Below are positions 3,181-57,654 of a stretch of DNA of 64,000 nucleotides, in pieces. Position 1 is the first letter of the stretch, and each line of letters opens with the position of its first letter. Below the pieces are notes generated by a model, which did no database searches, was not told the origin of the DNA, and was given only the letters and a program-made list of their open reading frames with translations. Position numbers and translations under genes: made by a program. Origin of the DNA: Moniliella sp. 'wahieum' (Eukaryota); NCBI GenBank assembly GCA_003971905.1, contig RSEE01000032.1:1-64000 (forward strand). Reading direction: 5' to 3'.

Positions 3181-5966
3181 ATGCGCATCCCCGCCGCCTG
3201 GCGGCCATGTGTGTCGTCCGCGGGCGTGCTCGGGTGCCGCCGCCCGCCGCCGTCGGCCCGCGCCGCCCATTCCCACTCCCAGCCCCCCCCGACTCGGACA
3301 GGGCCACGCTCGCCCAACTCCACGCCGCCAACAAGGCCGCTGCACGGGACCGCGTGCCTGTCCTGCCCGAGTCGGCGTGGAGCAAGACGCTGATCGATGG
3401 CCCCGCCCGCAGCAACGGCGCAGCCTCCGTCGCCTCGTCTGCCCGTCCAGGCAAGCTGTCCGCCGACGGTACGTGCGTCTCGCTGCCAGTGCCCCCGTTC
3501 CCACTGCGTCTGGTGTGATGTAGCACGCTCCCTCTGACCTTGCTATCCTCTGTGCTTGCCCCCCCCCCCCCCTCTTCCTTCAGGGCTGGACAGCAGGACA
3601 CGCCCGCACGCTGCTCGGCGCGACTATCCCCCTGTCACGCGCCTGCCCGACGCGGTGGTCTGACCAGCCTGCAATCCCCAACCCAGCCCAGACCGCCGAG
3701 GCACACCGCACCCTGCGCAAGCGCGGCTATTTGCTTGCCAGGTCCTCCTCGGTGGTGCCGTGGCGGGCGGCGTGGCCTACCTGCTGCTGCCGAACCTGCA
3801 TCTCGATGCGCCGTCGGGATCCCGCGACCTTGTTCCGGTCGCGCCCGAGACAGAGGAGGAGGTGATGGCGCGCTTGACGCTGGCCAATCCCCACCTTTCG
3901 GCCCAGGAGCTCGAGCGGTTCCTTGCGGTCGAGTTGCGCAAGCACAGGGCCCAGCTGGCTCGACACACTGCCCCACGCACGTCCGAGCCCAGCAAAGCGA
4001 GCTACGTGCTACTCAGTATCCAGCGCTCCTCTACCATCGCCAAGGCTGTGGTGGCAAGCATGTGGGACTACCGCAAGACGCTCAATGCTTCCTATGCGAC
4101 GAGCAGACGGAGCGCACGGCCCTGAGCCGCTGCCACACCCGCAGTGCGAAACGGGTCCTGCGCGCCCTCCAGGCCAACGGCGGAATCTATATCAAACTCG
4201 GCCAGCATGTCAGTGCCACGCTTTTTATCCCCAGGAGTGGAGAGATGTGCTGAAACCTTTGCAAGACCAAAACAAACCCACGCCTCTGCCCGAGTTGGAG
4301 GCCACGTTCCAAGCGGAAACAGGCAAGTCGTTCGAACAAGCCTTTAGCTTTGTCGATGTCACTCCCATTGGCGTGGCCAGTTTGGCACAGGTGCACCGTG
4401 CGGTCGAACGTGACACGGGACGGGAGGTGGCGGTCAAGATGATGCACCCGGACGTAGAGCGCTTTTCGGAAATCGACATGGCGACGGTCAATCGTCTCAC
4501 CGCATTGGTCAAGCGTACGTTCCCGACGTTTGAGTTCACCTGGTTGGCAGGGAGATGAACGAGAACATGCCGCTCGAGATGGACTTTGCACATGAGGCAG
4601 GCAATGCGGAACATGCCCGCCTCGACTTTGCAAAGTACAAATCAACCCCCGTGTACATCCCTGAAATGTACTTTGCCACGAAGCGGGTGTTGGTCATGGA
4701 ATTCATCCACGGTCGCCGCCCTGATGATCTCGAGTATCTGCGCAAGCACCATCAACCGTAACCAGGTATCGCAAGAACTGAGCAAGGCGTTTGCCCAGAT
4801 GCTTATATCCATGGCTTTTCCATGCCGACCCTCATGCGGGCAATGTCCTGATCCGCTCTGTGCCACCAAGAGCTCTCTTGCTGCCCACACGCGGTCTTCG
4901 TACAACTTTGAACTGGTGCTGCTCGACCATGGTCTCTATTTCCACATTCCGCAAAAACTTCGGGCCGACTATGCACGCTTTTGGCTTTCCCTCCTGTCCC
5001 ATGGCACCCCTTCGGTCCAGCGCCAGCGCCGCCAACTGGCAAAACGAGTAGCCAACATTGGCGATGAACTCTACCCTCCTAGAGAGTGCGATTACTGGTC
5101 GAAGTGGATTGGAAGGCAGCGACCCTAACAATCCATATGGAGTGGGAGGAAAGCGTCGACCCTCCTCGCTCCTTGATATGGACGGCGGTACCAAGATGAC
5201 GCGCGCAGAGAAGGCTCACATTCAAAAAACGATGATGGAGCGGGAAGGGTTGTTTGAGGATGTGCTGCGCATGTTGCGCGCCATGCCACGTCAAATGTTG
5301 ATGGTGTTAAAGTTGAATGACTTGACCCGCAGCTTGGACATGGCTCTCCACACTACCCATGGTCCCATTCGTCCTTTTATTATCTCGGCCCGCTTTTGCG
5401 CCACGTGCGTATGGAACGATGATTGGAACACTCTCCAAGCCCAGCGCAGGAGGGACGGGTGGAGTGTCGCGTGGACCAAACGCCTGTTGAGCGCTTGGTA
5501 CAACTATGCCGTACGTTTTTCTCTTCCCCCCCCCCGCGCCCCCTTCCCTTGCTTTCTTGCATTCGGTGTAGACCAAAGCGGAAGGAACTGAACTAAACTG
5601 AGTACTGAACTGAGACGATCGATGAGCTAACTTACCTGATTGCACCCGGGACAGTACTTTAACTACGGCTTTGGATTGCTGGAATGTTACTCGGACATAC
5701 GCGCACGCATTGGGATCGTGTCGTTGTACCTGCGCACCATGGTGCTGCATGGCTTTACTGCCGCTTCCCGTGCCGCAGCTGGGATCGACGAGGACCAAGA
5801 CCCAACCCCGTCCAGCGCAGACCAAGCTCCAACTGATCCTGATCCTGATCCTGATACTGGTACTGATACTGATGGTGAGGCGCACGGTACCGATACGATG
5901 CTGGAAAAGGGTATAAGGAGTATCGATCGCCTACACCCGCTACTCAGGCTTGAACGTACGTCTTGA
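3181..5966 (+). CDS. ABC1/UbiB-family atypical kinase (ADCK1/Mcp2-like), 2 introns (~3469-3582, ~5511-5653)
   Basis: Motifs NGGIYIKLGQH, PIGVASLAQVHRA, VAVKM, EMDFAHEA, VLVMEFIHG, FHADPHAGN, LVLLDHGLY, MLMVLKLNDL; introns begin GTACGT and end CAG. Confidence 0.92.
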
Positions 5967-6615
5967 AGCTTGAACAGGACTGAAGCTTGAAGTTCACTGC
6001 AGTGCCCAGTGGCCTGCCCTGCCCCTAGTGCACAGAGCCTAGTGCCCACTCACTCTAATCTACATGCTGTTTTAATGAGCGTGCTTCAGTGGGCCAAGTA
6101 GTAGCAGGAACGATAAGCGTGGCGGAGATAGGCAGCACGCGTCACGTAGACCAACATACACACTACACACCACACCACACTACATGAAAAGGGAAAGGGA
6201 AAGGGAAATGGGAAGGGAAAGGAATGTCCACTAGCATAGGGAGGACCACCTCGGACCTCGAGGGCCGCCCATGTGGTGGGGAGTAAGTATGCGCAGTACA
6301 ATGGCACAATGGCACAATGCACCGTGCGGTCAGAGTAAGGAGCGGGTAGATGGCATGTACGATGCCTGTTTCGCACGCTTGACTCACGTCGGACTCGCAC
6401 GACTTGACTCGCACGACTGACCAAGGGAAAGTGGGCAAGTGGGCATGTGGGCAGATGAGTAGCATGGGGGGAGATGAGGGATGCAGATTTGTTTTACGCT
6501 TCGGAACGGTCCAGCGGCGGCTGATTGGATCGAATGGAAGGTCCAGACCCAAGGGACAGGGAAGGGAGAGGGAAGGGAGGGGAGGGGAGGAGAAGGGAGG
6601 AGCAAGGCAAACCGT

Positions 6616-8174
6616 TTACGTGGGCTTGCCCTCAATCGAGGTACGCCACCACTCCTTGAGGCACGAATAAGGGTTCTCATCAAACGAGTCCTTCGGGTCG
6701 CATGCGCACCTGCCCGTGTCGTGGTACTTGGCACGGTTGGCCGGGCAATGGAGAAAGGAACGTGGTAGTACCCCACCGAATCCATATGCACGACCCGGCT
6801 CCGGTCCATAAAGAGGGCAACTGCGATGGAATGAACCGGGGCATCTCCCCAACGCTCGTAAAAGAAGCCACCCGCCTTGTCAAGATGGTCAAAGTACTTT
6901 TGGTACGCTTCACCACGCCAGAAACGCAAGTCGCCAATCTCAAAGTTGGACCAAAAGTGGCACAGGTTGTACCCGGGTTCCAGCCCCTTTTCCGGCTCGT
7001 CCGTCATGAAATGAAGCCCGTTGTCTTTGGCCAAGTACTGCGGGTTTTTTGAACAAATTTTTTCGTCTCGTCCCACAGGGTAGGAATGGTGTCCGGGTAC
7101 TCGTGCAGTGCCATGGTGAATGCATAGGACTTGTTGTTCATCTGCATGAAGAGGAACGGGTCAAAGTCCATGTCGCAGTACAGACGAATCCCCGGCTCGA
7201 CACGCCAGTAGTAGTCCAAGTCGAGCGTGAGCGGGTGCTGGAAAAAGAAACCGGATTGGAAACGGCACATGTGCCGGTACGATTCCGACCAGCCATAGAT
7301 GATGTTCTTCATTTTCTCCGCGTCTCGGCAGCTTTGGTCTGGTTGATCCACGGCGGGTACCCCCAGTGCTCCGGTCCAACCTTACCAAACCGAATTTCAG
7401 AGCGCGTCATGCTACGCACTCCCTTCTTAAATTCATCTGCCCAAAGCAAGACCAACGTCTCGGGTTAGCCCATCCGAATCCGCAAACGCTTTGCCTTTGC
7501 CTTTGCCTTTGCCTTTGCTTTGCCTTTGCATCCCCTGCCCCTCCGGCACCCGACCACGTACGTACCTGTAAAGTCATCGTCGTTGAGGAAGATCCAGGGA
7601 TATCCGTACTTGCGGTTAAACTTCTCCTCCACGTCACGCATCGAGCTCTTCATATCCTCCAGTTCCTGGTTGCGAACCAGGACAATAAACGCCGCTTTGG
7701 CGCGCGGCGCCTTGTTGGCAGCAGCGGGGACAAAGGCAGGAGGGTAAATGTTACCATCATCGCCCTTGACCCCCCACGACGCCAGCTCTTCCACCGAAAC
7801 GGGCGGCGCACCGGCCGGAGACTCGTAGAGCCAGTCTCCGGGACTAATCTCGCCACCTGGGACCTTCATCGTGCTGGCCGGACGGGCAGAGGCGGAAGGA
7901 AGCTTGGTCGACGGCGGCGGACGCTGGAATTGGTTGCCTACCCAGGCGGTAGCTTGTCCACCAGCCTGCTGGCAACAGACTTCCACTGCTGCGCATGCTG
8001 CGCGCCCTTGTCGGTGAAACCGACCCAAGAAACGAGGCTGATGGTGAACAGCACGCCGAGGGCAAGCACAACGAGCCGGATGGGACGCCGCACCACCGCA
8101 TCAACAATGCCCCGGGAAGAGGAGGGCCCAGAAGACGAGCCAAGACCGCCAAGTAGCTGGTAGCGCGGGGGCAT
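6616..8174 (-). CDS. Glycosyltransferase family 15 alpha-1,2-mannosyltransferase (Kre2/Ktr family)
   Basis: N-terminal TM ([17 protein letters not shown]), [78 protein letters not shown]; intron containing (GCAAAG)n near 7.5 kb. Confidence 0.95.
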
Positions 8175-8722
8175 GGCGCACAGAACTCCAACAGCAGACG
8201 CGGCGCGAAAAGAGGCGGTGCGAGCCAGACGACGCAGAAGAGGCAGACGACGCAAAGCAGCCAGCCAGCGGGGACTGCGACGGGCCAGCCATCATGCATC
8301 ATGCCATCATGCACCACATCGCCCGCCCAGTACCCAGACACACCGCCCAAAGTGAAATGTACAGTCGGTCGCGGGCGCCAGCACTCCCCACGGGGGCAGC
8401 CGCTGCCCGCCGCCGCCGCCACCACTGCCCCCCTGCCCGGCTGCAGGGGCATGCGCCACGCTGGAGCGCCAGCAGAAGCTGTCGCATTGGTCAATGATTG
8501 CTATTGCAGGTGCCGGCTTTGCGCCTCTTTGCGCGGGTGGATTGATATTGATGACTGACGCTTGCCACAGTTGGCGTCTGTCTATATCTATAGGCCCTAC
8601 TCGCTCACCCCTCTTCTACAAGGGCAGCCACGCCAATAGGTTGGCAGACGACGCATCGATATGGATCCATCCAGCCGTCCGCCCTGCTCTGCTCTACTCT
8701 ACGCCACGCCACGCCACACCAC

Positions 8723-10046: not shown

Positions 10047-10220
10047 ACCACACTGAGTACTGAGAACTGAGAACTGAGTACTGAGCCACACGGAGGGCAG
10101 GGTGATGGAGGGGAAAACGGTGTTGGTGCGGGCACCGGGCCGCGTAATTGCGGTGTCGGGAAACGCTAAACGCTAAACGCTAAACGCTAAACGCCGAGAA
10201 GGGCCACGTTGGTGGGTGGT

Positions 10221-10228: not shown

Positions 10229-11071
10229 CGGAATGCAATATTGCAATGCCCAGCCCACAGCGGTCACGTGTGACACGTGACTCGTGGTCGATGGCCATCG
10301 ATCGATGATTGGCTAACTGGCTGTCCTGGATCAGTGGGTCGGTGAGCCTCACCGGTCACCGCTCGACCTCAGCCGAGCGCACCTGCTGGGGTAGCCTCTG
10401 ACCTCCGGTCGCTAGCAACGCCACAGCTAGCTCATGGGGGTCCTGCTGCTACACATCCAAACGATCCGCCCCTGGGACAGGCTGGCGTAGGCCGGTGGCA
10501 CAAATACTGAACGTACTGAACGTTGAGGATGGTGGGGGAGGAGACGACATGGATGACATGGACTTGGCCAATGTGGATCAATCGATCGTGCCGCAGATCA
10601 TGGCCTGGCCTGGCAGCCATGGTATGCGTCCCCGCCAATCGCACGCGTAGCCAGTGCCCCGCTGGAAGCTAAAAGCTGGAAGCTTGACGCTGAAGCTTGG
10701 AAGGGCAATGAATGCGGCGGCAGCCCAGGGCCAGTGTACGCGCGGCTGCTGACTAGTGGCGAGTGATGAATGATTCCAGCACCCTGGGTGGCGTGGACGG
10801 TGGAGGTGGCGGAGGGCGTGTCAAGCCGGCGGTGTCATCGAATGGGTCATCCGATATCGACATAATCAGTACTCAGACTCAGTGTACTCAGGCTGAGCTC
10901 AGCCTCAGCGGCTCAGCCGCTCAGCCGCTCAGCGGATGATCGATGATCGATGAGGCGCATTCTGCTCTTCGCGCCCTCGGCCTGCCTGCCTCTCCGATCT
11001 CCACCCTCTCCTCCGCCTCTCCGCTCTGCGCCACCACCGCTGCGTCGCCTGCCCCCCCTGTTCTGCAGCGC

Positions 11072-14000
11072 ATGGGCGGACTGACCACCCCCTCCACCGG
11101 CCGGTCCACCGCCACCGGCACCACGGCCACTACCGGCCGCAACGCCCCCAAGTCCCGATGGTCCGGATGGGCCAACACTGGCTTTACCAAGTCCATCAAA
11201 GTTCCGACTGGGCGCCGGATACGTCAATGCAGCAAGCCATAAGCTCGGCAACGAGCGCTTCTGGCCCAGCTCGGGCGACTACGTCGAGGAGATTGCCAAG
11301 TGCACTCGCATCCTCAATGGCTTTACCCAACAGGGCTTTGTTCGCGAGGAAGAGCAAGTCGTCGCTGATGACGACCCCAACGGCAAGGTCGTCGTCGAGG
11401 AGCAGACCGTAGGTCCCGACGGCCAACCCATGACCAAGGAGCAAGCTGCCAAACTGGCTCCGAGCGAAACACGCACCCAAAAGATCACCAAGAAGATCAA
11501 GAAGGTCAAAATCATCCGCAAGGTTCGTCCCCCCTCCCGCGTCTTTTGTCTTGTCACATGTCACCACTAACCTCGCCCGACAAACCTCAAGATTCCTCCG
11601 ATGTGTTCAAAAAGGCGTGTGGAATTGCTATCTATACCTCTATGCGCAGTGGCATGGCACCCTTTGGGGGCTCGGGCGGCTCGGGCATCGTGATGGCTCG
11701 TCTTCCCGATGGCTCCTGGTCCGGTCCTTCTTTATCACACCACAGAACGCTACAGCAGGACTCATGTTTGGTATCGATGTTTACGATGTGGTGTTGCTCA
11801 TCATGTCTCCCACTGCTCTCGAGGGATTCAAACACACAAGGTCACTCTGGGCGCCGAGACTGCGATTGCAGCTGGCCGGTGGTACGGGCGCTGCTATGGA
11901 TATGAGTGTCAACGGAGTGGACTGGAGTAATTCCAAGATGCAAGTTCCAGAGGGAGAGAGGAGGAAAATTGCCAAACCTCCTGCCCCTTTGTTCTCGTAT
12001 ACTCGCAACCGTGGGTTCTATGCTGGTCTCGAGGGCATGGCTATGGTCTACCTCACGCGTTTTGATGAGAACGAAAGGGTGTACCATTGGCCCGGTCTGA
12101 CCGGTCGAGATGGTTGGAAGGAAAAGTACGCAAGCCCGTCGAGGCGCGTCAGCTCTACGACGCCCTGGCCGCAGCTGAGACGGGACAGGCTCAAGCAACC
12201 ATGTCAGATTTACGTGTGCCCAAGGAACTGGATAACGCGTCTTGGCCCACCTGTCATCGCAAAGCAGTTCGTCCCAGGCCAGCATGGTTGATACTGACAC
12301 AGCCTCGACCATCGGCTCAGTCCACGACAGTGCATCTTCGATCAAGATCGGCTCTGACGACAGTGCGACGACGGAAAATGGCGGACCTTTGGTCTGGACG
12401 ACGGTGAGAGGCTCCATTTACCGCCTACACCCGAACAACTTGACTTTATGGAACAAGCGGGCATCCAAGACGAAGAAGATGAGCGGCTTGACGCAATTCA
12501 CAAAGACTATATTTGGTCCTTGCCACCGCCACGTCATCCCGGTGCTGTCAAGCGGGCTGAGGCGATTACTCGCACCAAGGCCGGACACCGCTTTGTCGCT
12601 CCTGCCACTCTGCCACCGATGGGATCCACTCGCTTTATTGCGCCCGGTCCATTGCCAGATGCCAAAGCGGTCTCTCTGCCGCCCTTGAAGCGATCCCCCT
12701 CGCAGGAAAGCACGGGAACTCTCAACCGCTCGATCTTGACTCGCCTCCTCCCTATACGTCCAGTCCGGCCGGCATGGTCCCCCTGGGCCAGGACAAGAAG
12801 ACCCCTGAGCAAGAGGATGACAAGCTAGAGCACGCTACTTCGAAAGGTGCCAACCTCGAGGCTACCTCAGAGCTTTCTCTTGCACCCGACTCGACGGACA
12901 ACAGCATCAAAGCGAAAGGTGTTGATGCTAAGACGGACCTTGGACTAGACTCAAGCACAAGCACCGCACCTGTAGGTGTAGGAAAGGATGCGGCGCAGTC
13001 GTCCGATCTTGCGCAACAGGACTCGATCCAGTCTGCTTCGGAAGATATCGTCCCTGTTCAGACGGCCGACCAAGCTGAGGAGCCTGCTGCAGCGCCCGAC
13101 GCGCCCCATCCCTCAGCAATGGAGAAGGTTGAGGAGAAGGAGTCGCCGTCCACTGTTACTTCGGCGGTAAATTTTCGTAAGGGGTCGGCGGAGGAGGAGC
13201 CGGCCCGAATCGCCCGTACTATTCACGCCAAGGAGGGTAAACCCAATGACGAGACCGACCTGGCACGAGGGGAGGAGCAGAACGATGAGCGCTTGAGTAG
13301 TCAACCCGATGAACCCGATTTCCAAACAGTCAAGAAGTCGAGGCGCAAGACAGCTACCGAGTTGTTGCTAGACTCGATGTGGAGCGGGCGCTCGGGTACT
13401 CCTACTTCAGGCTTGGGACTGCTCCCTGGGGAAACAGGGGAAACAGGGGAAACAGGGGAAACAGGGGAAACAGGGAAAATCGACATCGACGTCCACCTCC
13501 GTTGGGCGGTCCTTCACTCCGGGTCGTTTGTTCGCCAAGCAGGTACCTGAAGAAGATGAGGAGAAGAAGGAGAAGGAAGAGGATGAGGTTGAGGTTGAGG
13601 AGCCCAAGACAGCGACAATGGCTACTGAGCCCAACCACCAACAAAAGATTGCTGTGCCGGTGGCTCGAAGGGAAAGCCTGCACCTAGGCACGGACGAAGA
13701 TGACCTGGATGACGAGGAGTTGGAGCGCCAGGGATCCAAGGCTACATCAGAGTCGGGTCCTAGCACGAGGCATAGCATCGACTCTTGGCGACCTGAGTAC
13801 GATACGGACGAGGCGGAAGAGAGCACGACAGATGCATTTGCGATCATTTCCCGTCGGATCTCCAGCATGCCTCCCTCACGCGAACCGACGTCGCACAACG
13901 CGGCACAGGAAACGCAACAGGATGAGGATGAGACGCACAGGAAACGCAACAGGATCAAGAAGAAGCTCAAACCCGGCAAGAGTATCTGTTTTCCGCCGCA

Positions 14001-14439: not shown

Positions 14440-16360
14440 CTGTCACGTATCAAGTGTCAAGTATCAGGTTGAGGTTGAGGTAAAGGATGGGGAATGAAGC
14501 TTGAAGGATGAAGGATGAGGTGAGGGGGGCGGGGGGGGGCTAGAGTGGTTGACGGTATGTTGGACCTGCGTCAAGCTTCAAGCTTCAAGTTCTTCTAGCT
14601 TCATGCTCTTCAAGCTTCAAGCTTCAAGCTCTTCAAGTTCTTCAAACTTCAAGCTCTGCAAGTTTTTCAAGCCTGGATTGATTTGGGGGCGGACCGTCAC
14701 GGTTGTCTGTCGGAGGCTCGATTGCTGGCTCACCCGTCGGGCCTCAGGCCTCAGGCTCAGGCACCATGATGACGACGTGATTAAACGTGTAACGCGTAAC
14801 GTTGATTGATGTGTAGCGTGTATACGTTTTGGTTTCCCTTGGCGCTGCACACAAGCCCAAGGAGCCGGGCCGACTCTCTCGTTTCTTTTCGTTTAATTGA
14901 TGCTTTTTTTGTTCTTTGTTCTATCCAAGCAACCCAAGCATAAAGCCGCTGTGACGGGAGGGGGTGGTGCAGGTAGGGACATGTGCATGAGATGTGAGGC
15001 CTGAGGCGCGCGAGGCCCAAGCAGGAGGCTTGAGTACCTTGAATTGAATACAAAGTTATTGAGTACTGAGTACTGAGTACAGATGTTCGCAGCAGATGCG
15101 CCTCGCTCCCAGCCGCGGTTGTCGGGAGAACACACCAATAGGATTGAGATGGAAGAGGACGCGGGACGAGTCGGAAGGTGGGGTGGACATATAGGCACTT
15201 GGAGCCGTACACAGGCGCGGGGAGGGTGGCACGGGGGCAGTATCAAGCACCCGAGGAATGGGCTGATGCTACCCACTGGCGCCGTGCGGCCCACGTGACT
15301 GGGGCTCCGCATTGGCAAAATCAGACCACGGTACGCCCGCTGGCCCAGGGGCTATCGACTATCGCCCATTGGCTATTGGCTATCCCATCCGTCTCGTCGC
15401 TGGATCAGCCCACCTCCCATGCTCGATGCTCTCTCCTTTGCTCCGGACCGACCCGCGCGGATAGCCATTGTGGCATTGTGCATTGATGATGATGCCCTCC
15501 GCTCTGATCTCGGTGCGCGACGTGGGCTTGGCGCGTGCCCCGTCGCCCGTTTGTCAGCATGCCGTTGAGCGCACCCAACTGGGCCTACAAGGCGTACTCC
15601 TATGGTGTGGTACTACTGGTATTCACATATTCACATGCAGTGTCGCAACAACGCCGCGCCACCCGCCAAAAGTACACAACACACGATGATCCCAGTATGC
15701 AGTAGGCCTTAGGCTGGGTCGAAGGGCTCGAAACATGATGCATGACGCATGACCGGGACCCAAGGCCGCTGGACGGTTGAATATTGGTTGCGGGACAGGC
15801 CGGGAACGCCTAGCGACTCTAGCGACGACTGCGGGGTGGCCCTGCGATAGCAAGAAGCATTAAGCAACCCCAGTCTGTCATTCCACTCAGGCAACATTTG
15901 TGGGGGCGCCGGTGATGTAGTGACTAGTGACTAGTGACTGACTAGCTTGACTAGTGATGCAGGTGCATGGGCACTGCAGGGCAGATACGGCGCAGGTGTG
16001 CGAAGATCGTCAGAGATGCTCACCGGACGGTCATTTCTTTGCCCACTTCTGGCATCTCAGGTCCAGCTACGCGCGCCATAGGTGATACCCCGTGCCATCT
16101 GCCCCTTTCGCACGTCCCTGAGGCCTGGGCCTGCCTAGTGACTAGTGACTTGTGACTGTAGAGGGTATTGTATCAAGCATCATGCATGTCTGGTAACGCC
16201 GGTGGTACGTGTGCTCGCCCGTTTTTTTTCAGGGGCTTGGGTATAAAACCACCCCCCTCTTTGGCTGGCTCTACAGATCCCCCACCCTCCACCGCACCAC
16301 ATACATTCTCTTTCCCCTCGCCCTCCCACCTCTCTCGCCTCAACCCTTGTCCTGTTCGCC

Positions 16361-16720: not shown

Positions 16721-18079
16721 TCGCCTAATCGGTGGTCGTAACTTCCAATTGGTCGGATCACGGTGCAGTGCTTTTCCTTACGACATGAGTTGGGCTGTGC
16801 ACTGCGGCCCACATCCTACGCTCTGCACGATCGAACGCGTCAACGTCACTAGTCACTCTTCTGGCTTGAAGATTGGAGCTTGAATAAGCTTGAAGATTGG
16901 CTAGTCATCTCCCAATGTACATCACGTTTGCAACTCGACTTGACGCTTCCATGTAGTGCAAATAGAAGACGAGAGGCTCTCCCCAACAACATTCTGGGCT
17001 GCTAGCGCTTGCCGCACTGGTTCCCTAGGGTAAAGTACATTGTGGGGAAAGAGTACATGGAGACGGACGACATGTGGGAATAGTAGGGTGTAGCCGTCCA
17101 ATCGTGGAGAAAATGCATTAGTTGCGGTAATGGCCAAAGGTCCGTAATAACACTGCATGCATAACAGCATCAGACTGTGGATTCAATGACTGTGTAGCCC
17201 GACAGACAAAAATATGCAAGCAAGTATCGCTCCCCTCCCATCCGCACTCGACAACGGTAATGCTCCAGCAAAACAATCCAACAACACCGTGACGTCTTCT
17301 TCATATCACTTGTTGTCGCGTGCCGTCGAAGGGGGTTCAGGTTCTGCAGGAGAATGCTGCTCATCTAGCAGTCTGGGGCAACTGACAGTATAGGTCAATG
17401 GTTCGGCGAGCGGGTACGAGTGCAGTGAAGGGGTGTGGGTGTGGGTGTGGGGGGCATCAAAGACGGAGGGGGGCGGAACAAAGTGAACAAGAGAGGAGGC
17501 AGGCAGGCAGGCCAGCTTCTTTTCCCCCTCTGAATAGTCGGTTGGTTACTAATTGTGTCAACTGCTCGTGCCCCAAAGGGGGGGATAGTACTAAGTAGGG
17601 TCTGAATCTGTTGATCAAGGTCCTATGGACCAGCCACCTCTGCGGCACTCCTGACCGTGACCGTCTTACTCATCGGGGCACCACGCCAGTATCCCTATCC
17701 CCTGGCCTCGTGCCGCTCTCCTTTCTTCTCCTTCTTCTGATTCTCAGTCTGGGTTCATTGAACGTTCAATGTTCAACCCAGCTCTGTCTTCTCTCTGCCA
17801 TTGCGTAACTGCACTTGGGACATCGCTGGGTAACCAGGATCATTAGAGTTGCAATTGAAGCACTGCGCCTACGACTCTCTGATCTCCCCAACCCCCAGTC
17901 GTGAGTACCAAAGTTATCCCACCCTTCCACCCCAACGCCACCTCTCGGTTGCCCTCCCCACCCCACAAGGCCACCTCCCGGTCACCCCCCCCACCACCAA
18001 TCTCCCGATTTTCCCTTTCCCCAGACCACCCGGTCCCCCTCCCCCCCTCTCGCAAGACCCACAACCCGCCCCCCGGTAT

Positions 18080-19800
18080 ACAACCCACAACATGGTCGCA
18101 ACCCGAGGGCAAATCCCAAACCGACGCGACATGAATCCGCAACCAGATCTATGAGATGCTGATGGCCCTAAAGGAAGTGCCAGGCCGCCCGTCTCGATCT
18201 TCTCCAGCTGTGCGCCATGGAGGTCCACAGCACCAGAGCCGATCCTCGCGTCAAAGGAAGAGAACCTCGACGAGGAAGAATACCTTGAAGAGGAAACGCT
18301 CGCCTTAATCAAGCGAGTCCTGACGCGTCGCCGACCACCAGGCCATACAGCGTCACGGCCACTGTGGATGAACCACTGCATCCGCAATCAGAAATGTCAA
18401 CAAACTGATCCTAGCCAAGACGATCGATGGTCCGCCGTGACCTCCAAGACCCGCATCGGTTCAACACCGCCTACCAAAACATGGTGGCGGAGCTGAAGTG
18501 CATCCACCCTGACGCTAGGGATATCATCGAAATGGGAAGAAGTGCTCGCCACTTCAACGAGGCGATCGACGCCAGCATGAGGACATGCCTTATGATCGCC
18601 CTGCCACCCCGAGCCCGAAACGCATTCAACCCTCCAAACGAGGAACCTTCGACCACACAGGATTTCCTGGAAAGACTCCACGCCGATACGGCCCGGTACC
18701 GAAGGCGCATCCCAACGGGACACAGCCAGTCCAACGGAGTGGCAGAGCGTGCCATCCGCAGCATAGTTACGCGCGCAAGGCAGCTCATCCTAGCCACAGG
18801 CCTCCCGACAGCAGCAAGGTGGCATCACGCCCTCCACGCGGCCCGCTTCACCCACAGTCTCATACCCCCGTCTGTGAGGACATCCGGAAACTCTTTAATG
18901 AGAACAAGCAGGGACAAGCTTCGGGCGCGTTTGGCTGGAGCGTATGGAGGAATTGTATGGGAACGTCGTTGCCACATGCGGCGCCCAAGACGAATGGTAC
19001 CGCCATGCACTCCTCGACGGCATGAACGACCGCAACCTGAGCACCAACCACCTAAAATCGGACCTGGAGGACCTGCGCCTTATTATAAGGGAACTTCCCG
19101 CTCCCACGCACAAGCCAATCAACAAAGTGGCGGGAAAGAATCCCAACTCTGATGGCCGTCCATTCAATGACAGCTACGGCCGTACGGGAAAAACCCCCAA
19201 AGCGACAAGTCGAATGGCGGGGGCAAGTTCCTCAGCGGGGACAAAGATCTGAGCGGGGGCAAGCCGCTGCGCCCGATCCGCAATCCGGGCCGAGACCAGC
19301 CTCAGTCGTATGCGAATATTGCTACCGCCAATCCCGCGGGAGAAGCCAAGACGCAGGGCCACGCCCTCTATACCTGCTGGATGAATAGGAACTCGGGGCG
19401 AACTAGGGAACATCCGAGCGCTCTTCGACAACGGCGCTTTCCCCACCATCATCTGGAGGGAACGCGGCGCATTCATGGACCTGCTTCCGTGCCACGACAC
19501 GATCGAAGTGGCCAATGGGAAATACATAAGAGCAGAAGCCCGAGGGAACTGCACCCTCCGACTCCATATAGCAAAGGGGGACAATGCATTACCATCAATT
19601 TGCCCGACTGTCTCTATGTACCTTCGTTTCGCCTCAACCTCGCTAGTGTCGCCCACTTGTCGAGCGCAGGATATGCATCCTGTGGCTTGCCCCAGACCGC
19701 CGAGGCGTGTGGATACGCCCAACCAGGTCACAGGCAGCGACTACGAACTCAACCTCTTGCCGGTTTCTGAACCCCATCGCCCCACACCTACCCAAACGCG
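18080..19800 (+). mobile_element. Degenerate, internally rearranged Ty1/copia LTR retrotransposon relic
   Basis: Integrase fragment PTGHSQSNGVAERAIRSIVTRARQL (~18710-18860); zinc knuckle CEYC..GHALYTCW (~19305-19385); copia protease region LFDNGA..TIEVANGKYIRAEARG..LPDCLYVPSFRLNLASVAHLSSAGY (~19415-19680). Boundaries approximate; no LTRs identified. Confidence 0.85.
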
Positions 19801-20637
19801 AGCCATGCCAGCCAAATCAGATAACCAATCCCAAGCTGACATCCTCGCTCAGGAGCACGTGCGAAACGACTGAGTACGAACGCTGGAGCCATGCATCAAT
19901 TCCCCTCCTCCCGGAGGTTTTAGAGAGAATGGGTAAACGCTGCCCACACGCTTCAAGGCGATAGTGCGTGGCATTCAGTGCGCAAAAGACAAAGTGTGGC
20001 GGCCAGACCGGGTGCACAATGTTCACGAAGCAGTGGAACTTTGGGCTTTTGCCGTCATAGAAATGGCCGTCTGCGGAGGATTCCGCAGCATGGATAGTAA
20101 AGAAAACGAGAGCAGAATCGGACTCAACCGAATGGAGGAGTTTTGCAGGGCCGTAGTACAGACTACATTGCCCGTGCTTTGAAAGGTGCTGAGGCGACGC
20201 ATCAGTGCATCAGATGAAGATGCGTGTCCTAAGCATCGGTCTCTAAGGGCCGGCTGGCTCTCGGGCGCTGTCACGTGCTGCTGTGCGCATCAACCACTAG
20301 AACGCGCGTGGCCAACCCTACTGTGCCATGCCGACATGCGTCTGCCGTGGCTGCCGGCTGCACGCCGAGTGGGCACTGGGCCTGTGCTGCGCGGGCCACG
20401 CACCCAGCGCCAGGCACCGGCAGGCTGTGACGTCATGCTGCCGCGTGCATCGATCATTTCATCTCTCCCGATCCTTAATCATTCGATCACTGGCGCTGTG
20501 GTGCCTGTCACGTGCCAGTGTGCCCAGGCACGCTCGGCCTCGTCAGCGTCGCCAGCGTCGCTCGCCTCGCCGCATTGCCCCATCTTCCGTCGGCTTCCTC
20601 ATCTGCGCCTCCACCGCCACCAGCTCCCTCCTCCAGC

Positions 20638-27855: not shown

Positions 27856-27950
27856 CGACAATGACAGGATTCGAACCTGTGCAGGCAGAGCCTAATTGAT
27901 TACAAGAACCTCATTCAAGTCAATCCCCTTAACCCCTCGGGCACATTGTC
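27856..27950 (-). tRNA. tRNA-Ser(UGA) with 13-nt intron
   Basis: Reverse complement folds: acceptor GACAATG/CATTGTC plus discriminator G; anticodon stem ATTGA/TCAAT; loop CT-TGA-A[TGAGGTTCTTGTA]A; long variable arm; T arm ACAGG-TTCGAAT-CCTGT. Confidence 0.95.
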
Positions 27951-32867: not shown

Positions 32868-32998
32868 ACGTCAATGACATTTCTGACTTTCAAGGGGTGA
32901 CGTCGGCGACATAACTGACCTGCAGGGGGATGACATCGAGACATATCTGACGTTCAGGGTGGTGCATCGACGACGTCCCTGACCTGCAGCGCGCTGAC
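32868..32998. repeat. Degenerate 32-33 bp tandem repeat, about 4 units
   Basis: Units GACATTTCTGACTTTCAAGGGGTGACGTCGGC / GACATAACTGACCTGCAGGGGGATGACATCGA / GACATATCTGACGTTCAGGGTGGTGCATCGAC / GACGTCCCTGACCTGCAGCGCGCTGAC. Confidence 0.85.
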
Positions 32999-33020
32999 AG
33001 AATTGCCTCACCCGCGCAAA

Positions 33021-35514: not shown

Positions 35515-37873
35515 CTCTGTGCCCCATCCACCATCGCAAGCATCACCTGGCCGATGGGCAGTCCCGGAGGGCATTGGGAAGGGTGCTCGGGCATGAACAG
35601 ATCCAGATCCAGTTTTCGTTTGCGATGGGACGAGCCGAAGCCCATGTTGACCTGTAGCGCGCAACCGGTACCTCCGAAGTGGAGGCGTATAGCAGTACAT
35701 TGATACACTTGGGCCACTGTCCACCACAAACATATCCGGGTCAACGGCAAGCAAAGTGGCAAAGGCCATAATCAGATTTGATTTGGCCGGATATACTGAC
35801 GTTGGGGCAGGTCTATCCGGGTGGACCCAGCCCCTCCTAAAAACGGCCCTTGAAAGCAAGCGCTTCGTCACCTTTCTCACCGCCCTCACCAAGAGTATAT
35901 TTACCACGGCACTGCCCCTGGACGCGAGCTCTCGTTGGCCTCCCGCCTTCCCCCCCTGGAGAAGGCATCGGGAGGTATCCGCCCCTCGCCTGTGGGGAGT
36001 TGATCTACCGCCTGTGCGCCAAGGCCATCGCTCGAGCGATCGCCCCCAACAGCTGGCTTCTCCCCACCCAGCTGGGAGTAGCATCGCAAAACGGGGTGGA
36101 GCCTATCGTATGGATGGTCGAGCGCATGATAGCGCCAGATGGGGAGAACGATGCGGAACTGGGCGACTGACTTCAGCCACGTCGCCATGCTCGACTTTAC
36201 CAACGCGTTCAACACTGTGCGCCGTCGCACACTCGCCAAGGCGCTCCATGCCTACGCCCCCCATCTCCTCACCTTGGGCCGATGGATCTACGATTCCCCC
36301 ACCCAGCTTTGGGTCGCGTCGGGCGGAAATGAGACCAGCGTCCTGTCGGCAGAGGGCGTACGGCAGGGCGACCCCCTCGCCCCCTTTTTCTTCTCCATCG
36401 CAGTGCGGCCCACGCTAGAGAAGTTGAGAGATGCTCTGCCGCAGCCGGGGCACCTGGTGATGGCATACCTGGACGACATTACGAGATCTTCGGTCCAGGG
36501 CCCGGCATTATCGGCTAAGCCGCGGAGATTTTGGAACGACGCGTCAGGCCTCAAGCTCAACCTGCGCAAGTGTGTCGAGCGGGACCGGGACCAGATTCGG
36601 GAGGATGGTCTGCAGGTTCTGGGCACTTGTGTGGGAGGGGTAGACTGTCGTCGATCCTGGCTCCGGGCCCAACTGACCAGTCTGAGGGAGAACATGCTTA
36701 AGTTTGATGGCATCACCCGCCAGGGACGCCTCTTACTATGGCGGCTCGGCAGCACTCAGACCAAGCTGCGCCACCTGCTCCGCACCATGCAGATGGAAGG
36801 AGAGCTAGACGACGTGCTGGCCGAGATTGATGCCTTCATCTGTACGGAGTTCAGACGGATCCGGGCGACGAGGATCCCCAAGGTGCCAAGGACGACCACT
36901 TCGACATGCTCATGAGCCTGCCTCTCCGGATGGGAGGATGTGGCAGCCCGCTTTACTCGTATATTGCGCCCCACCCATGCCGCGGCCAACGAGGTCAACG
37001 ACTATCTTATTACCACTTATGTTGACCCAGCGGGACCGCAAACGGCTACGGCCAACGCATTTACGAAGCAACGCCAACGCTGCCGCGAGATGTGGGAGCA
37101 AAGTCGACAGGAGCTGCTCCAGAAGCTGGGCGCTACCGATGGTCGCCATGTGGTTGAGCACAGCAACCCGCTGAGCCACAACTGGCTCTCCGCCATTCCG
37201 TCCGTCCCGTACCTCAAGCTCTCCGACCAGCAGGTCCAGGTTGGTCTCCAGCTCCGCACGCTGTGCCGTACCACGCGCAGCATGTGCAAGTGCGGTGTCA
37301 TGTCCTCGCTGGAGCAGATCATGTATTGCACCCGCTCCCAGGCCAAGTTTGGTGCGTTGCATGACGCAGTGCGGGAGCCCATTCTCCAGCTCCTACGCTC
37401 CATTCCCGACACCCACGTCCACAACGAAGCTATGGTGGAGGACGAGGATGGCAGGAGATAGTGGACACAGCGCACCGACTACCGCGTGATGGGGCCCGGA
37501 GCACTCGGAGGATCAGGAATGGAGGTCGACCACACGCTGCGCGACACGGGATCGCTGGAGGCGCAGCGCGTTCCGGAGAGGGTGGTGCATGAGAGAACCG
37601 CAACCCCTTGGAATGCCGGGAGAAGGAGCTGCTTCGGATGCTTGAACAAGTAGAATGCGACAAGAACGCCAAGTACCAGGGACGCACTCAAGAGCCGTTT
37701 TTCCCCTGGTTTTGACGACGCGAGGATACTACGGCACCAAGACGGCGGGCAAGTTGTTTGCGCATTGGAAGGAGTGGCTACTAAGTCTCAGTGAAATGGT
37801 TCCTCGCTCGGATGTCAACCACGTTCCTCTGTGTCCACAAGCGCTTCCTAGGGTACGGGACCGGATGGCGTGA
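35515..37873 (+). mobile_element. Non-LTR retrotransposon of CRE clade (RT plus C-terminal restriction-like endonuclease), 5'-truncated
   Basis: GAGLSGWT, KASGGIRPLACGELIYRLCAKAI, LLPTQLGV..NGVEPIV, LDFTNAFNTVRR, EGVRQGDPLAPFFFS, MAYLDDI, GLKLNLRKC, GLQVLG, GWEDV (GGLG-like), NWLSAIP, CKCG..C..LHDAV, RTDYRV, KNAKY, VFPLVLTTRG. This is the layout of Cnl1/MoTeR-like elements. Confidence 0.92.
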
Positions 37874-39316
37874 GCCGGAGGGTCCTGTGATATCCTGGCG
37901 ACCCCCTGGTTCCTTGACCCTGGTGGCGCCCCCAAGTAACCCCCGCAAGAGGAACGGTTAGGTTTAGACGTAGCGTTCCCCCTGTCCCAGCTTTAAGCTC
38001 TGCCAATGAAATGGACGTGATCTAGAGATTACAACAGTAACTCTGGCAAATCCAACCTTAAGCGAGCAGTTCTTGGCCTTCTGTTACCGGCCTCCGCGGA
38101 TTCAATCTAATCGACGGCCCGATGGCCTTGGCAGTCTTAACAGAGATTGCTTAGTTCCCAACCCCAACCCAATTCAATGTTAAAGGGGTTGAGCCATCAT
38201 GTTCGATGATCGATGATCCGAGTGGTCATTAACCTATCAACGTAGTATCTCCTCAGCGAGACGATAGGTGCTCCTTGCCTCTTTATATTATTTTCTGTTC
38301 ACAGTTACCCGCGTTGTGTCCCACGTGTGGGGAGGAAACACCGAGAGGCCACTTCCTTTCTTGTTTCCTTCCCGGGGGAACAGTCTTCCTTCTGGTGATT
38401 GCTTTCCAGTATGTTATGCTTCTCATGACAGGTATTTTTTTACTCTTCTTAGATCGTGACAATATGCCGCACTTCATTTCGACGCCGGCTCCCAACGATC
38501 TGACTGTTGGCATCATTTTCTTTTGTTGAGGTCTCGCAGCAGACCACAATTCTGGGCTTTTGTGCACTTCATTACTTTTGCTCGCAAAGGGTTACCTGTT
38601 TGTGTAAAAAGACGCCCGCTCCGTCCTTTCTTCATCCTGTCTGCTTGGTCGATAATTGGGAGAAAACTGGTAAATGTGGTAGATAAGAGAAAGGGACTGC
38701 TAAGTTTCTATTGCTTCTGGGGGCCGCCCTCGATCGCCCTCCCTTTTCACCTAGATATCAACCGATTGTGGTTCCCTTCATGTTTCCGGCCAGCAAAAGA
38801 TTGTCCCCTATCTGAGCAGCGTCGACGTCACATTATGACGGAAACACCTTGTAGCTATCTCATCCACATGTGCACAATGCACAGCGGAGGCCTATACCCA
38901 AGCCGACTCTCTAAACCAGAATGCACCCCTGGCGGGCACGTATGACCACAGACAGAAGAAAATGAGAGGGGCATCACATTTGATGAAAGCAAGCCAGCTT
39001 GCCTAAGAGCACATCTCAAGGGAAGAAGAACGGGGTGAAAGAGGGTGATGTAGCAGAGAGTAGCTCAACCCAGCTGCCAAGAAGGGCGAGAAAAACAGAC
39101 TGAAGAGAAGAAGGGCGGGGAAAGGAGGCAATGGATGAATCGCGGACCCAGATCGTTGACATCTTCGTTCCCTGTGCAAATATCGTGATCAAGCCCAATC
39201 CCGCGCCGGGGATGTAGTTGTGGGTTGAAAAGGTGATGAAGTAGATATTAGAAGAAGAAAACGAGGCGTCGGAATCGATCGTCGGAACCGATGGGACCAT
39301 CTTGTGAAGGAAACCC

Positions 39317-40614: not shown

Positions 40615-41998
40615 GGCAGCTGCGTTCGCGAGAAAGAACGTGATGGGATGAGGAGCAGTGACGAGAGAATGTGTCAGGGTGTGTAGGGGCGGGGAGAGGG
40701 CTGAAGGAGAGCAGGATGGTGGTGGCGAGGAAAGGGTCAGAGGGAAAATTGGCAGGTCGACTGTGGTCTGTCAAGGGCCGCGGCGGGATACCACAGATCC
40801 CACCCTGCATCCTCGTCGATCGTCGTCTTGCGAGGTAAGTTGCACAACGCATATATGTGGGCCCTGGTATTGACACGGGCGCAGAGGCACCCGGGGGCAA
40901 TGTGCCACGACTCCAGTTGCAATTGCAATTGCAATTGCAATTGCGGATGTGACATCTGGGAGCGACAAGCGGAGGCGCGAGCGAGACGGCGGAAGGGAGC
41001 GCTTGGCAGTGCTCTCCTGCTCTCTCCTTCTCTCACTCTCTCGTCACTCCGTGCTCACGCTCACTGCCAGGCAGATCATAGTCGCTCGCCCAGCCTGAGC
41101 GCTCATCAACACGTCAACGTTCAACACCATTACACAGCTGTGCCCACACGCGCCACCGAGAGCGACTCCGAGCCGGGTGCGAAGAGCGACATTGGCATCC
41201 CCCCACCCGCGGCGCACTCGAGCCCCCCACAGAGCGAGTAGATCAGTCACGCCCTTTGCAGTGCTAACTATTACTCGGAACCGTAACCGGTAGGTAACCC
41301 CACAAGAGTACAGCAATAAGGTCAAGGCCTAAGGTGCGTCTTGCGTCTGCCTCACACTACTTTAGTATAGTTTGGCTGTGGCATATATTAGCTTCTGCCC
41401 TCCTCTGCCCCTCCCCCCTCTCCTACGATTCTGCTGCCCTGCGTCCCACTGGGCCCACACAAACGTCAAAACGGAGCGAGCTTGGCGTGTGCAATGATCC
41501 AATGACTAATGAGATCGAGAGGAGAGAGAGAGAGGGTGACCGATGCGGAAAGAGCAAAAGGCCTCAGCCTCATGCATCCTGCACATCATGCACATCATGC
41601 ATCATGTGCATCATGAATGACTAGATGACTCGCCCACCGATCCAGTGCCTTCAGTGCAGATCTTCAGGTCATAATATCGTTGGTGGGTCTTGGCGCGAGA
41701 CGCGAAACGGGAGATGCCAAATGTCCATCCATATACATGTCCCTTCTACTGAACATTCAATATTCAGTACAGGCCAGCGGTCAGGTCAATCAGTGGTCAA
41801 AGAACTCTCAGACTCAGTTGTCGAAGTGGAGCGTTGGAGGCCAAGTGTGGTGGTGGGGGGGGGGGTTGCTCAATGAGATCATGAGATCTGAGATTCCGTG
41901 GTAGATGGAATGGGGGTGGGGCATGGGGATGCGAGGAGGGCCATGCGTGGTGTCATGCGGTGTAAAAGGGTAGGGAAAAACAAAAAACAAAAAAGGAA

Positions 41999-42095
41999 TG
42001 ACGAGAGTGGGATTCGAACCCACGCCCCGGAGGACTGCGGTTGAGGTAACTGGATCACCTTAACACAGCGCGTTAGACCACTTCGCTATCTCGCC
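41999..42095 (-). tRNA. tRNA-Leu(AAG) with ~17-nt intron
   Basis: Reverse complement GGCGAGA..TCTCGTC-A acceptor; D loop AGTGGTCTAA; anticodon stem CTGTG/CGCAG with TT-AAG-G[intron]C; variable arm; GTGGG-TTCGAAT-CCCAC; downstream oligo-T pol III terminator (A runs at ~41976-41994 on the plus strand). Confidence 0.95.
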
Positions 42096-42739
42096 TGATG
42101 CTTACCATGAGAATTTGAATCATTTAGATCAGTCCATAGCCTGAACCAGATCGGTACAGGGTGCGGAGACTGAGTGGCAAGCAAACCACAGTGCCTGCGT
42201 CGGCCCCCCTCACGCATTACGAGTTTCAATTACTTGTCACTCCAATCTATCAATTCTATGCCGCACCACACTTTCCCTCCTCCCTTTCCTTCTCTTCCCA
42301 TCCTATCCCATCCCATCCTATCCTCCAAGCTGCTCTACAGAAAGCTCACGGGGGAAAAGCGGACGAGTTCAGGGGGTCTCAAGGGGACGAAAAAGATGAG
42401 TTAAAACGGGGGGGGGGAATGAGATGATCAAGTGCCACGTGCTGATCCACCGCGAACAAGGAGAGGAGGTGAGATCAAGGGGAAGGGAGATCAAGAGATC
42501 AAGGGGGGGGGGGAGATGATCAAGGCGAGGGGAGATCAAGGGGATGGGAGATTAAGAGCTCCAAAGGGACCTGAGATCTGGGATCTGAAATCTGATCCGA
42601 GAGAGGGCTCGAGACCAACCACCAAGCGCGATCCAACGGGGTTGGTTCAAAAGCGATCATCGATCATGGAGGGGGGTGAAAAACCATGTGTCATGTCATA
42701 CGCATGCACCCACAGCTGGATGCGAGATACAGGTGAGGA

Positions 42740-48280: not shown

Positions 48281-49139
48281 CGTGGACGGGCACAAGGAGG
48301 GGGGGCGGGAGCGAGCGGCGGGGGGGCGGGGGGCGGGGCGGGTGGTGGCGGTCGGGGGAGATCCGGGCAGACGTAGCTGCTGCATCGCAGCCCTCGCTCG
48401 GCGAGCGGCAGGGCGAGTGGATGCGGTGGCACGGCGGCGCACTGGCCCGGGCGGCCGGGTGGCATGTGGCATGCGACGGTGCACGGGCCGGGGCGGCAGG
48501 CGGGGAGTGTGGGGGCGGCGGGGGCAGGCGGCGACGGGTGACGGGTGAGCGGCCGCAGCGCAGCAGGTGCTGGAGGCGTCGCTGCTCGAGCCGATAGCCG
48601 ATGGTCCAGTCCATGGCCGCTGCAGCAGCTGCTCCCAAGCGCCCCTGCCTGCGCCGCCGCCAGAGCGCTATTACCACGGCCCATGCCAGGGGGGGATGGC
48701 TGCGCGCCGGGCGTGGCCGATGTGGCCGGTGGCGGCCGACGCAGCAGCAAGCAGCAAGCAGCAAGCAGCAAACAGCAAGCAAGCTGGCCCGGCCGCTCGG
48801 GGCATGGCGCCTGTGGCGTGTGCCTGCGGGCCGCTGTGTGCTCCCGTGCGAGAGCCATCTTGAATCGGCAACGTCATTCTCCCCCCGCGCATACTTGGGC
48901 AAGCAAAGCAATAAGCTGCGAAGCCAGCGCATGCCAAGCCCAGCCGCCCTGTGTGTGCTCCCTGCATCGCCTCGCCTCGGCTAACCCTCACTAGTCACTA
49001 ATCACTACTGCCCACCACTACCTCCGTTTTCCCAGCCTGGTGCCCACTATGCATACGTTCGCTCGGGATAGATACATGGCCAGGTGCCAGTGGCGACTAG
49101 TAGCTAGTAGCTCGTTGCTCGCGAGTCGTGGCTAGACAT

Positions 49140-53007: not shown

Positions 53008-53131
53008 GTAACAATGGCATGATGCAATGCTGTGAGTGGGGAGGAATGATGAAAGGGGGGTAGGTACAATGTAAGAGTCAGAGGGCGTTTATCTCAAGAG
53101 TAAGTGGTGGTAGCTTGGTAGGCGGGTAAGG

Positions 53132-57325: not shown

Positions 57326-57593
57326 ACGTATTAAGTCTCCTTCTTTCTGCCGTTTGATGGTTCCCCTTATGCACATGCCCCCGCAGCTTGCCTGTCTCTA
57401 TGCTGTAAAACGTCCATTGCCCTCTTACGGGGCATGAATGGATTCCCTGTCCTTCCAGGACGCTCCTCATCTACCTCGTCGTGCCTTAGCTATCATATAG
57501 TAGGACGTTGAACATTGGATTCTTGATGGAACAGAATCCAAACCAGCGGCACACATCAAGTTTGCACGACCAGAAGAATCCTGGCTACGGCAC

Positions 57594-57654
57594 CCATGCA
57601 TCATGCATCGTGCATCATGCATCATGCATCATGCATCATGCATCATGCCCATGC
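57594..57654. repeat. (CATGCAT)n 7-bp-period quasi-palindromic array, ~7-8 units
   Basis: Read directly; lies between the convergent 3' ends of RPL2 and TOM5. Confidence 0.95.

Follow-up and report, generated by a model that had tools for sequence, protein, structure and literature searches.

Palindromic 7-bp repeats in a Moniliella genome as probable excision footprints of an EnSpm/CACTA-related transposon

The first 64 kb of contig C32 (RSEE01000032.1) of Moniliella sp. 'wahieum', hereafter the window, carry many short intergenic arrays that differ in sequence and share one architecture: T[GC]A (TSA, where S is G or C) alternates with a 4-bp palindrome every 7 bp. What could write the same grammar with so many different letters? 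An initial annotation of the window offered two answers, cooperative sites for a dimeric factor or the footprint of a fold-back or template-switching mutational process. We find that the pattern is real and genome-wide, and that it is a mutational scar rather than a binding code. The mutational footprint therefore stands, with transposon excision in place of replication template switching, and the cooperative binding site is not supported. Very probably, a cut-and-paste DNA transposon related to EnSpm/CACTA left these units behind on excision, and to this transposon we relate a 4.9-kb inverted-repeat element found in the same assembly.

Repeats were counted in a 594-kb sample taken from large contigs and equal to 0.85% of the 69.5-Mb assembly. 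It comprises the window, seven stretches of contig C14 and 46 dispersed 10-kb stretches from contigs C1-C21 (contigs are labelled by C-number). Expected counts in this sample are those of a Markov background, and five order-3 Markov copies served as background for the window.

A single rule behind the repeat units

All 17 stretches cited in the initial annotation contain a 10-mer of T[GC]A, palindromic tetramer and T[GC]A, and 15 of them contain the full 12-bp unit TSAxy-y'x'-TSAxy, where x' and y' are the complementary bases. In the two others (17758-17780 and 25855-25875), the perfect palindrome TGAACGTTCA stands alone, without the 12-bp unit. Such 12-mers number 57 in the window and belong to 33 loci, the latter figure including 8- and 9-bp variants, compared to 0-1 per Markov copy. 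In the 594-kb sample, 189 of 373 perfect period-7 runs consisted of a 6-bp palindrome plus one base (background 3.0 of 44.6), and no such excess was seen at period 5 (199 of 926) or period 9 (4 of 74). The comparison of palindromic with non-palindromic cores, which the annotation had proposed as a check, gave 412 TGA-palindrome-TGA words where 10.4 were expected, against 364 non-palindromic cores where 222 were expected (1.6-fold). The TAA/TTA version of the palindromic pair was also in excess (65 versus 2.6), the other six symmetric centres were enriched less than twofold, and 13 of the 16 palindromic cores had at least 10 counts. Across the whole genome, (TGAAGCT)x3 gave 1,039 matches and its reversed control none.

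Some details of the described grammar needed revision. A spacer of G or C holds for most units, but 78 of 562 12-mers have A or T. The proposed pairing of TGA with either TGA or TCA was borne out for same-strand pairs (the 412 above), but mirror pairs are far fewer (34 and 20); perfect TGA-core-TCA palindromes numbered 34 against 9.4 expected, a 3.6-fold enrichment. The 7-bp unit also has 8- and 9-bp relatives beyond the original description.

More than half of the arrays in the sample (198 of 342) are shorter than 14 bp, the length of two units, and most often measure 12-13 bp; hence they are not simple tandem duplications. Beyond the 10-mer, a two-base extension was present on the right only in 38 cases, on the left only in 35 and on both sides in 10. 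This one-sidedness leads to a simple rule: as read from these sequences, the basic event converts ab-TSA-xy to ab-TSA-xy-y'x'-TSA-xy, or produces the mirror form, and so combines a duplication with two inverted, P-like bases (P). At asymmetric sites, the junction xyy'x' occurred 128 times and its mirror 108 times (0.6 expected). The same sites yielded 26 examples of the 8-bp form (0.4 expected), 10 and 13 of the 9-bp forms, where two inverted bases separate two complete copies of the 7-mer (0 expected), and 30 plain 7-bp duplications (0.4 expected), although some of these classes overlap. Duplicated words accompanied by two inverted bases were in excess at 5 bp (376 versus 71.5), 6 bp (76 versus 24) and 7 bp (59 versus 5), and rare at 8 bp (5 versus 0.5). 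The joints have the properties of hairpin footprints, in that the target duplication is kept and the insert is the reverse complement of the adjoining flank. Perfect palindromes such as TTGAACGTTCAA lie outside the 12-bp rule. From the rule, a 7-bp target duplication centred on TSA was predicted ahead of the search for an element.

The window region exists in three copies, on C32, C14 and C19. C14 and C19 are about 92-97% identical in most aligned pieces, and each is about 66-85% identical to the window in conserved blocks. Two close copies and one distant copy suggest a triploid hybrid, and the closeness of C14 and C19 makes them a natural haplotype pair for comparison. Their alignment spans 160,906 columns with 4,609 substitutions, after exclusion of pieces below 85% identity or shorter than 300 columns. 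It also contains 1,284 one-base gaps, and ordinary genes show frameshifts, which together suggest many assembly indel errors. Among 40 indels of 7 bp, 14 obey the rule without tandem duplication and 7 more are unit gains within an array. When the 31 non-tandem 7-bp indels were sorted by centre type, 14 fitted at T-N-A and none at the other 15 types. Of the 8-bp and 9-bp indels, 2 of 12 and 3 of 18 obeyed the rule without tandem duplication, and some differences comprise two whole units (14 bp). If the direction of change is assumed, these amount to 19 clear scar events, or 30 with ambiguous cases, per 4,609 substitutions. The polymorphism between these two sequences indicates that scar formation is continuing.

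Scars evolve like their surroundings. Substitutions per column were 0.0354 within 12-mers and 0.0353 in flanks, and 95 of 183 12-mers were identical between haplotypes compared to 402 of 732 flank words, a rough test in that loci were chosen for a perfect unit in one of the two haplotypes. Orthologous spacers of the subgenomes differ both in how many arrays they carry and in which ones. The annotation's observation that exons lack arrays was upheld: none of 300 loci fell within coding-like DNA, which makes up 16.8% of the sample by a classifier that weakly biased genes escape. Such a deficit is expected of a frameshifting insertion; in-frame 9-bp scars were likewise absent from coding-like DNA (0 of 37). 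As judged from these patterns, the scars behave as neutral sequence, last only outside coding DNA and give no indication of function. Extrapolation from 300 loci in 594 kb gives a total of about 35,000 scars, and T[GC]A covers 2.8% of positions. Neighbouring loci are often less than 200 bp apart (119 of 262 gaps), and 102 of these 119 close pairs have different cores, which fits repeated hits in open DNA or insertion hot spots. The reported scarcity of arrays in the 27-38 kb island of the window is a modest deficit only: the island makes up 17% of the length and contains 2 of the 33 loci.

The 4.9-kb element and the origin of the scars

The element has inverted repeats with the termini CTCACTG..CAGTGAG. 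Its first copy was found on C11, and a terminal-sequence search that left the flanks free, at up to 3 mismatches, detected 14 ends assembly-wide. Five of six two-ended copies are bounded by a perfect 7-bp duplication of the form nn-TSA-nn, as predicted: GATCATG on C23, GTTGATG on both C34 and C29, CATCAAC on C35, and GATGATG around a 378-bp miniature copy with related inverted ends (L096:211-588 on C20). Lone element ends adjoin GTTCAAT, GATGAAG and CATCACC, and an end on C8 has two extra bases. Tandem repeats of the TTCCGTACC type lie subterminally at both element ends; subterminal tandem repeats are a feature of EnSpm/CACTA transposons. Half-sites of the element have A/T and then G/C beside TSA in 16 of 20 cases.

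Several observations concern the element and its neighbours. Two of its ends on C23 (L091:190-203 and 1235-1252) lie directly inside apparent earlier scars, which suggests re-use of scarred sites, and the element itself bears two scars. A relative on C66, considered as an autonomous copy, proved to be a truncated, older one. Among the loci sampled before the element was found, a scan for inverted repeats bounded by 7-bp duplications revealed no element. Insertions of the long terminal repeat (LTR) type were rejected as the scar source: both the large haplotype insertion with a clear duplication and a 198-bp insertion have TG..CA ends and 5-bp duplications. One 1.55-kb insertion on C14 that is absent from C19 (L072:6684-8233) is classed as a small non-autonomous LTR element by its TG..CA ends, its direct terminal repeats and the 5-bp duplication that accompanies it.

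One site was found both occupied and scarred. On C29 the element lies between two copies of GTTGATG. The homologous site on C53, whose flanks are 87-91% identical, reads GTTGATG-CA-TGATG followed by the same right flank. This is the 7-mer, two inverted bases and a second copy minus its first two bases, and so contains a TGA-TGCA-TGA unit. Had the element entered a pre-existing scar, the duplicated word would be CATGATG.

The affinity of the element was traced through its broken reading frames. One frame shows similarity to the C-terminal region of a gene on C34 (E 2.9e-5 among 635 frames), whose upstream frame matches PF02992 (Tnp2) with an E of 2.5e-5, below the cut-off. These matches make the element a likely relative of the EnSpm/CACTA superfamily, as kinship rather than proof. 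In a full HMMER scan, the element frame was also linked weakly to two unnamed proteins that have no Pfam or solved-structure match. Its nearest Atlas cluster is named DUF4218, with recognition below threshold, and CxxC and HPVEPMH motifs were noted by eye in the broken frames; no relative of the best frame emerged from a word-based protein search. The Tnp2-like gene on C34 (L087:3262-6872) is single-copy in a DNA search, has long frames, lacks inverted ends within 10 kb and lies about 8 kb from an element copy, which makes it a candidate source of transposase in trans. A second Tnp2 gene, flanked by scar arrays, occupies the same place in both haplotypes (L086:2900-6230 on C17, and L089 on C62). 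Domestication of this gene was considered and rejected, as its substitutions are spread evenly over codon positions, unlike those of the neighbouring host gene. Genome searches for hAT (PF05699) and KDZ (PF18758) transposases returned no match, but their controls were also silent and the searches are insensitive; a search for the Harbinger transposase family found no match.

Excision of such an element could produce the scars in a few steps. Insertion at ab-T[GC]A-xy duplicates these seven bases, as seen in the two-ended copies. Excision would then seal the two flanks as the hairpins xy|y'x' and b'a'|ab, which would be flush given the even centre of the palindrome. hAT, Transib, MULE and RAG leave flank hairpins that are opened by host enzymes (PMC5499845), and the cut made by Pso2 or Artemis falls two nucleotides 3' of the hairpin apex (PMC3299998). 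A host nuclease of this type, opening the hairpins 2 nt 3' of the tip, would leave the 4-nt self-complementary overhangs xyy'x' and b'a'ab. End joining would mostly retain one overhang to give TSA-xyy'x'-TSA (+7 bp), and partial retention of the other would give +8 or +9; these products are the ones observed, and from them we infer the joining chemistry. The product site would now be symmetric, with both overhangs forming the same palindrome, so that clean rejoining would add one unit and further hits or slippage could build (TSA + palindrome)n arrays. At isolated scars, the A/T-G/C flank occurs on the kept side in 105 of 236 cases (44%) and on the lost side in 66 of 236 (28%), with a background of 31%. 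The flank with kept inverted bases thus has this composition more often, and survival of the two hairpin ends may be biased accordingly.

Other processes might leave comparable marks. An orphan or host-kept transposase-like nuclease, for example the product of the C34 Tnp2-like gene without terminal inverted repeats, could cut T-N-A directly while the 4.9-kb element rides the same enzyme. Such a nuclease would suit the ratio of scars to element ends (more than 1,000 to 1), the long frames, single copy and lack of inverted ends within 10 kb of the C34 gene, and a flank preference in scars that is looser than the element's. Yet a 7-bp duplication with hairpins at both new ends would appear to require prior insertion, and we know of no single cut that gives both; moreover, the C17/C62 gene is without purifying selection, and insertion plus excision accounts in full for the only scar tested at an element site. 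We regard this explanation as unlikely. Still less likely, and largely refuted, is replication template switching, in which a polymerase copies 2-3 bases of the other strand and re-anneals 4-5 bases back. Short switches do yield local inverted copies (PMC5453318, PMC7954356), and the 3.6-fold enrichment of perfect TGA-core-TCA palindromes accords with them, but the T-N-A preference (14 versus 0), the 7-bp ceiling on duplication and the match to the element's target duplication and exit site would be unexplained, and other odd centres and periods are not enriched.

Ordinary microsatellite slippage, helped by hairpin-forming units, is visible in the two-unit (14-bp) haplotype differences and in the 7 of 40 7-bp indels that are unit gains in existing arrays, and it probably lengthens arrays as a secondary process. 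As an origin it is refuted and very improbable: it does not account for the first unit at asymmetric sites, for the 198 of 342 arrays under two copies with fixed end phases, or for the lack of palindrome-plus-one enrichment at periods 5 and 9. Long arrays elsewhere make the same point, since in 120 metagenome loci selected by their long TGAAGCT array other cores turn up just 11 times in 399 kb, compared to 309 times in 594 kb here, and the grammar is absent from these loci. The least probable explanation is a set of selected sites for a dimeric factor reading TGA-N4-TGA/TCA. The loci lie in non-coding DNA and tend to cluster (119 of 262 gaps below 200 bp), and several in the window are close to gene starts or ends, but a protein that reads duplex DNA would have no simple way to require any palindrome whatever. 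The core is taken from the local flank, 13 of 16 cores occur at least 10 times, non-palindromic cores are enriched just 1.6-fold, and 12-mers are conserved no better than flanks (95 of 183 versus 402 of 732 identical); close pairs with different cores (102 of 119) fit insertion hot spots as well.

Excision of an EnSpm/CACTA-related transposon remains the explanation we prefer, and a number of points weigh against it. About ten element copies are in view against tens of thousands of scars, and the extrapolated 35,000 scars face only 14 element ends. The C11 copy has two different flanks, both nn-TSA-nn, and was picked by the T-N-A pattern, for which reason it is uncounted. The five long copies, 12-41 substitutions apart over 4.8 kb, have no long frame and no Pfam match, from which it follows that they moved recently and are non-autonomous. 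We found no intact or active transposase for the element, and the C17/C62 Tnp2 gene, with 12 synonymous and 34 non-synonymous changes, is in neutral decay. The looser flanks of scars mean that this family may not explain all cores, and other or older element families probably contributed. The direction of the C14/C19 indels is an assumption. The comparison of occupied site and scar is a single pair, and in a second candidate pair, C8 versus C23, the left side is unalignable. Among the five long copies, the one on C29 diverges most, at 27-41 substitutions from its sisters in 4.8 kb, but this is low beside the difference of about 3.5% between C14 and C19 near scars, so that C29 would have to be the donor of the other copies or its site to have been hit twice; the data fit an old resident, and a second hit at a favoured site is also possible. 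Finally, the literature covered, in the passages available, contains no report of hairpin formation by EnSpm/CACTA enzymes; for Pack-CACTA, the passages of PMC6379663 report footprints and 3-bp duplications and leave hairpins unmentioned.

Scar loci and other features of the window

Minimal scars occur at 14495-14506 (AGCT core, 12 bp, asymmetric site), 14790-14801 (CGCG core, TAA centre), 14995-15006 (GGCC), 15734-15745 (TGCA), 16846-16857 (CTAG), 28812-28823 (GCGC), 41114-41125 (ACGT), 41755-41766 (ATAT), 42655-42666 (TCGA), 48988-48999 (CTAG) and 59974-59985 (CATG). Further 7-bp scars lie at 8290-8303 (TGCA, symmetric site), 10349-10360 (CCGG), 14742-14755 (GGCC), 16137-16150 (CTAG) and 38205-38218 (TCGA), with two of AGCT core at 5962-5992. 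Introns identified by eye contain a GTAC-core scar in the ABC1-kinase gene (5597-5608) and a CATG-core scar (11552-11563). In the former intron (5585-5630), several branch-point-like words (CTGAA, CTAAA, CTGAG, CTAAC) overlap the scar, and one may speculate that TGA/TCA-rich scars could supply extra branch points.

Arrays are found at 10052-10084, where GTAC-core scars lie directly upstream of the disulfide isomerase (PDI) gene, and at 10935-10953 (TCGA), 15060-15078 (GTAC) and 15919-15939 (CTAG). A long AGCT array with 7- and 9-bp units occupies 14571-14637, and the longest perfect array of the window, of TGCA core, lies downstream of the ribosomal L2 gene at 57613-57647. The 8-bp variant is present at 15621-15634, 20200-20213 and 27733-27746, and together with a GATC-core 7-bp scar at 41873-41893. 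A 9-bp variant at 10506-10521 has the full 7-bp site doubled with two inverted bases, and another precedes an AGCT-core 7-bp scar at 26509-26529. Clusters mix ACGT and AGCT cores at 26242-26287 and 7-, 8- and 9-bp variants at 41584-41630. The palindrome TTGAACGTTCAA, outside the 12-bp rule, stands at 17759-17770, possibly with a longer P arm, and at 25856-25867.

The remaining features are of other kinds. A non-LTR retrotransposon at 35693-38032 has a reverse transcriptase match (PF00078); its 3' end is shared, with up to 93% identity, by at least five further loci of the sample, and C14 has copies that C19 lacks. A decayed LTR-retrotransposon-like stretch with a weak Pol match spans 17609-19900, and its start recurs in L073. 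A dispersed repeat of about 830 bp with a TGT start (30307-31139; copies in L045, L060 and L061) resembles a solo LTR. Four degenerate 32-bp repeats in the AT-richer island (32876-32999, with a similar word near 28540) are possibly subterminal repeats of another element. A minus-strand tRNA-Ile was called at 27855-27951, and a second minus-strand tRNA-like stretch at about 42000-42095 was seen by eye and is uncalled. The best named relative of the disulfide isomerase is a Tilletiaria protein (49%), which suggests a basidiomycete akin to the smuts.

Relation to known systems

On balance, we lean towards a broader reading in which an undescribed EnSpm-related lineage with a 7-bp nn-T[GC]A-nn target acted as a low-copy, hit-and-run mutator. 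It would have left some 35,000 near-identical hairpin scars from about ten copies, at about one new scar per 150-250 substitutions between haplotypes, and seeded the main 7-bp microsatellite class of this genome. If so, intergenic DNA here is a dense record of past transposition and host hairpin opening, and a DNA transposon can rewrite much non-coding DNA without copy build-up, such that copy counts understate its effect. The rule lets tens of thousands of past landing sites, the target preference and the repair outcome be read from the genome. It would also provide indirect evidence that an EnSpm/CACTA-like enzyme excises via flush flank hairpins, as RAG and Transib do, and would widen the clade's reported duplication range of 2-5 bp to 7 bp. 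A caution follows as well, in that a striking grammar between genes can turn out to be neutral scarring.

Flank-copied palindromic bases are likewise found at V(D)J coding joints and where Transib, hAT and MULE elements have excised (PMC5499845, PMC3299998), and the two inverted bases seen here match opening by Pso2/Artemis 2 nt 3' of the apex (PMC3299998). Unlike those hairpin systems, ours combines a 7-bp T[GC]A-centred duplication, one dominant product and a genome-wide pile-up of scars. Sites vacated by Ac/Ds (hAT) in Candida albicans, budding yeast and plants show deletions and short insertions of P bases, with short arms in C. albicans as here (PMC5873905). However, the Ac/Ds palindrome is centred on the complement of the base beside the element and is therefore odd, whereas the centre here lies between two bases (PMC5873905). 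The usual hAT duplication is 8 bp rather than 7 bp.

Among fungal elements, the EnSpm/CACTA groups CMC/CMCT (CNIRT6 and CNEST of Cryptococcus neoformans) share CACTG just inside the terminus, subterminal repeats and possibly Tnp2-like remnants (PMC12810828, PMC12730594). CNIRT6 begins with CACTG and the present element has CTCACTG termini; duplications are 3 bp for CNIRT6, TA for CNEST and 2-5 bp for the CMC/CMCT clade, compared to 7 bp here (PMC12810828, PMC12730594). If the ends are redefined to begin at CACTG, further inside, no 3-bp repeat lies next to them, so the 2-5 bp duplication of CMCT is not recovered. The CTCACTG..CAGTGAG ends also depart from the CA..TG termini that PMC12730594 gives for CMCT 'in most cases'. 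Duplications of 7 bp do occur in basidiomycetes, in hAT7 of rusts and Kyakuja of Laccaria (PMC12730594). The remnant here resembles Tnp2 rather than hAT7, with no match to the hAT dimerisation domain, and Kyakuja lacks the inverted repeats that our element has (PMC12730594), with no KDZ match, both in the insensitive searches above.

A survey describes Ustilaginomycotina genomes as compact and repeat-poor (PMC5751038). Many small dispersed repeats are known from a smut-related genome, as 10-bp repeats of Ustilago maydis proposed to be transposon footprints (cited in PMC4081816); that account, in the passage concerned, gives no sequence rule, palindrome or source element, and the likeness is by description only. 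The literature searched, outside which lie subscription papers, Repbase entries and supplements, holds no account of scars with this pattern or density, or of an EnSpm-like element whose target duplication spans 7 bp centred on TSA. P-nucleotide footprints as such are already known from other systems.

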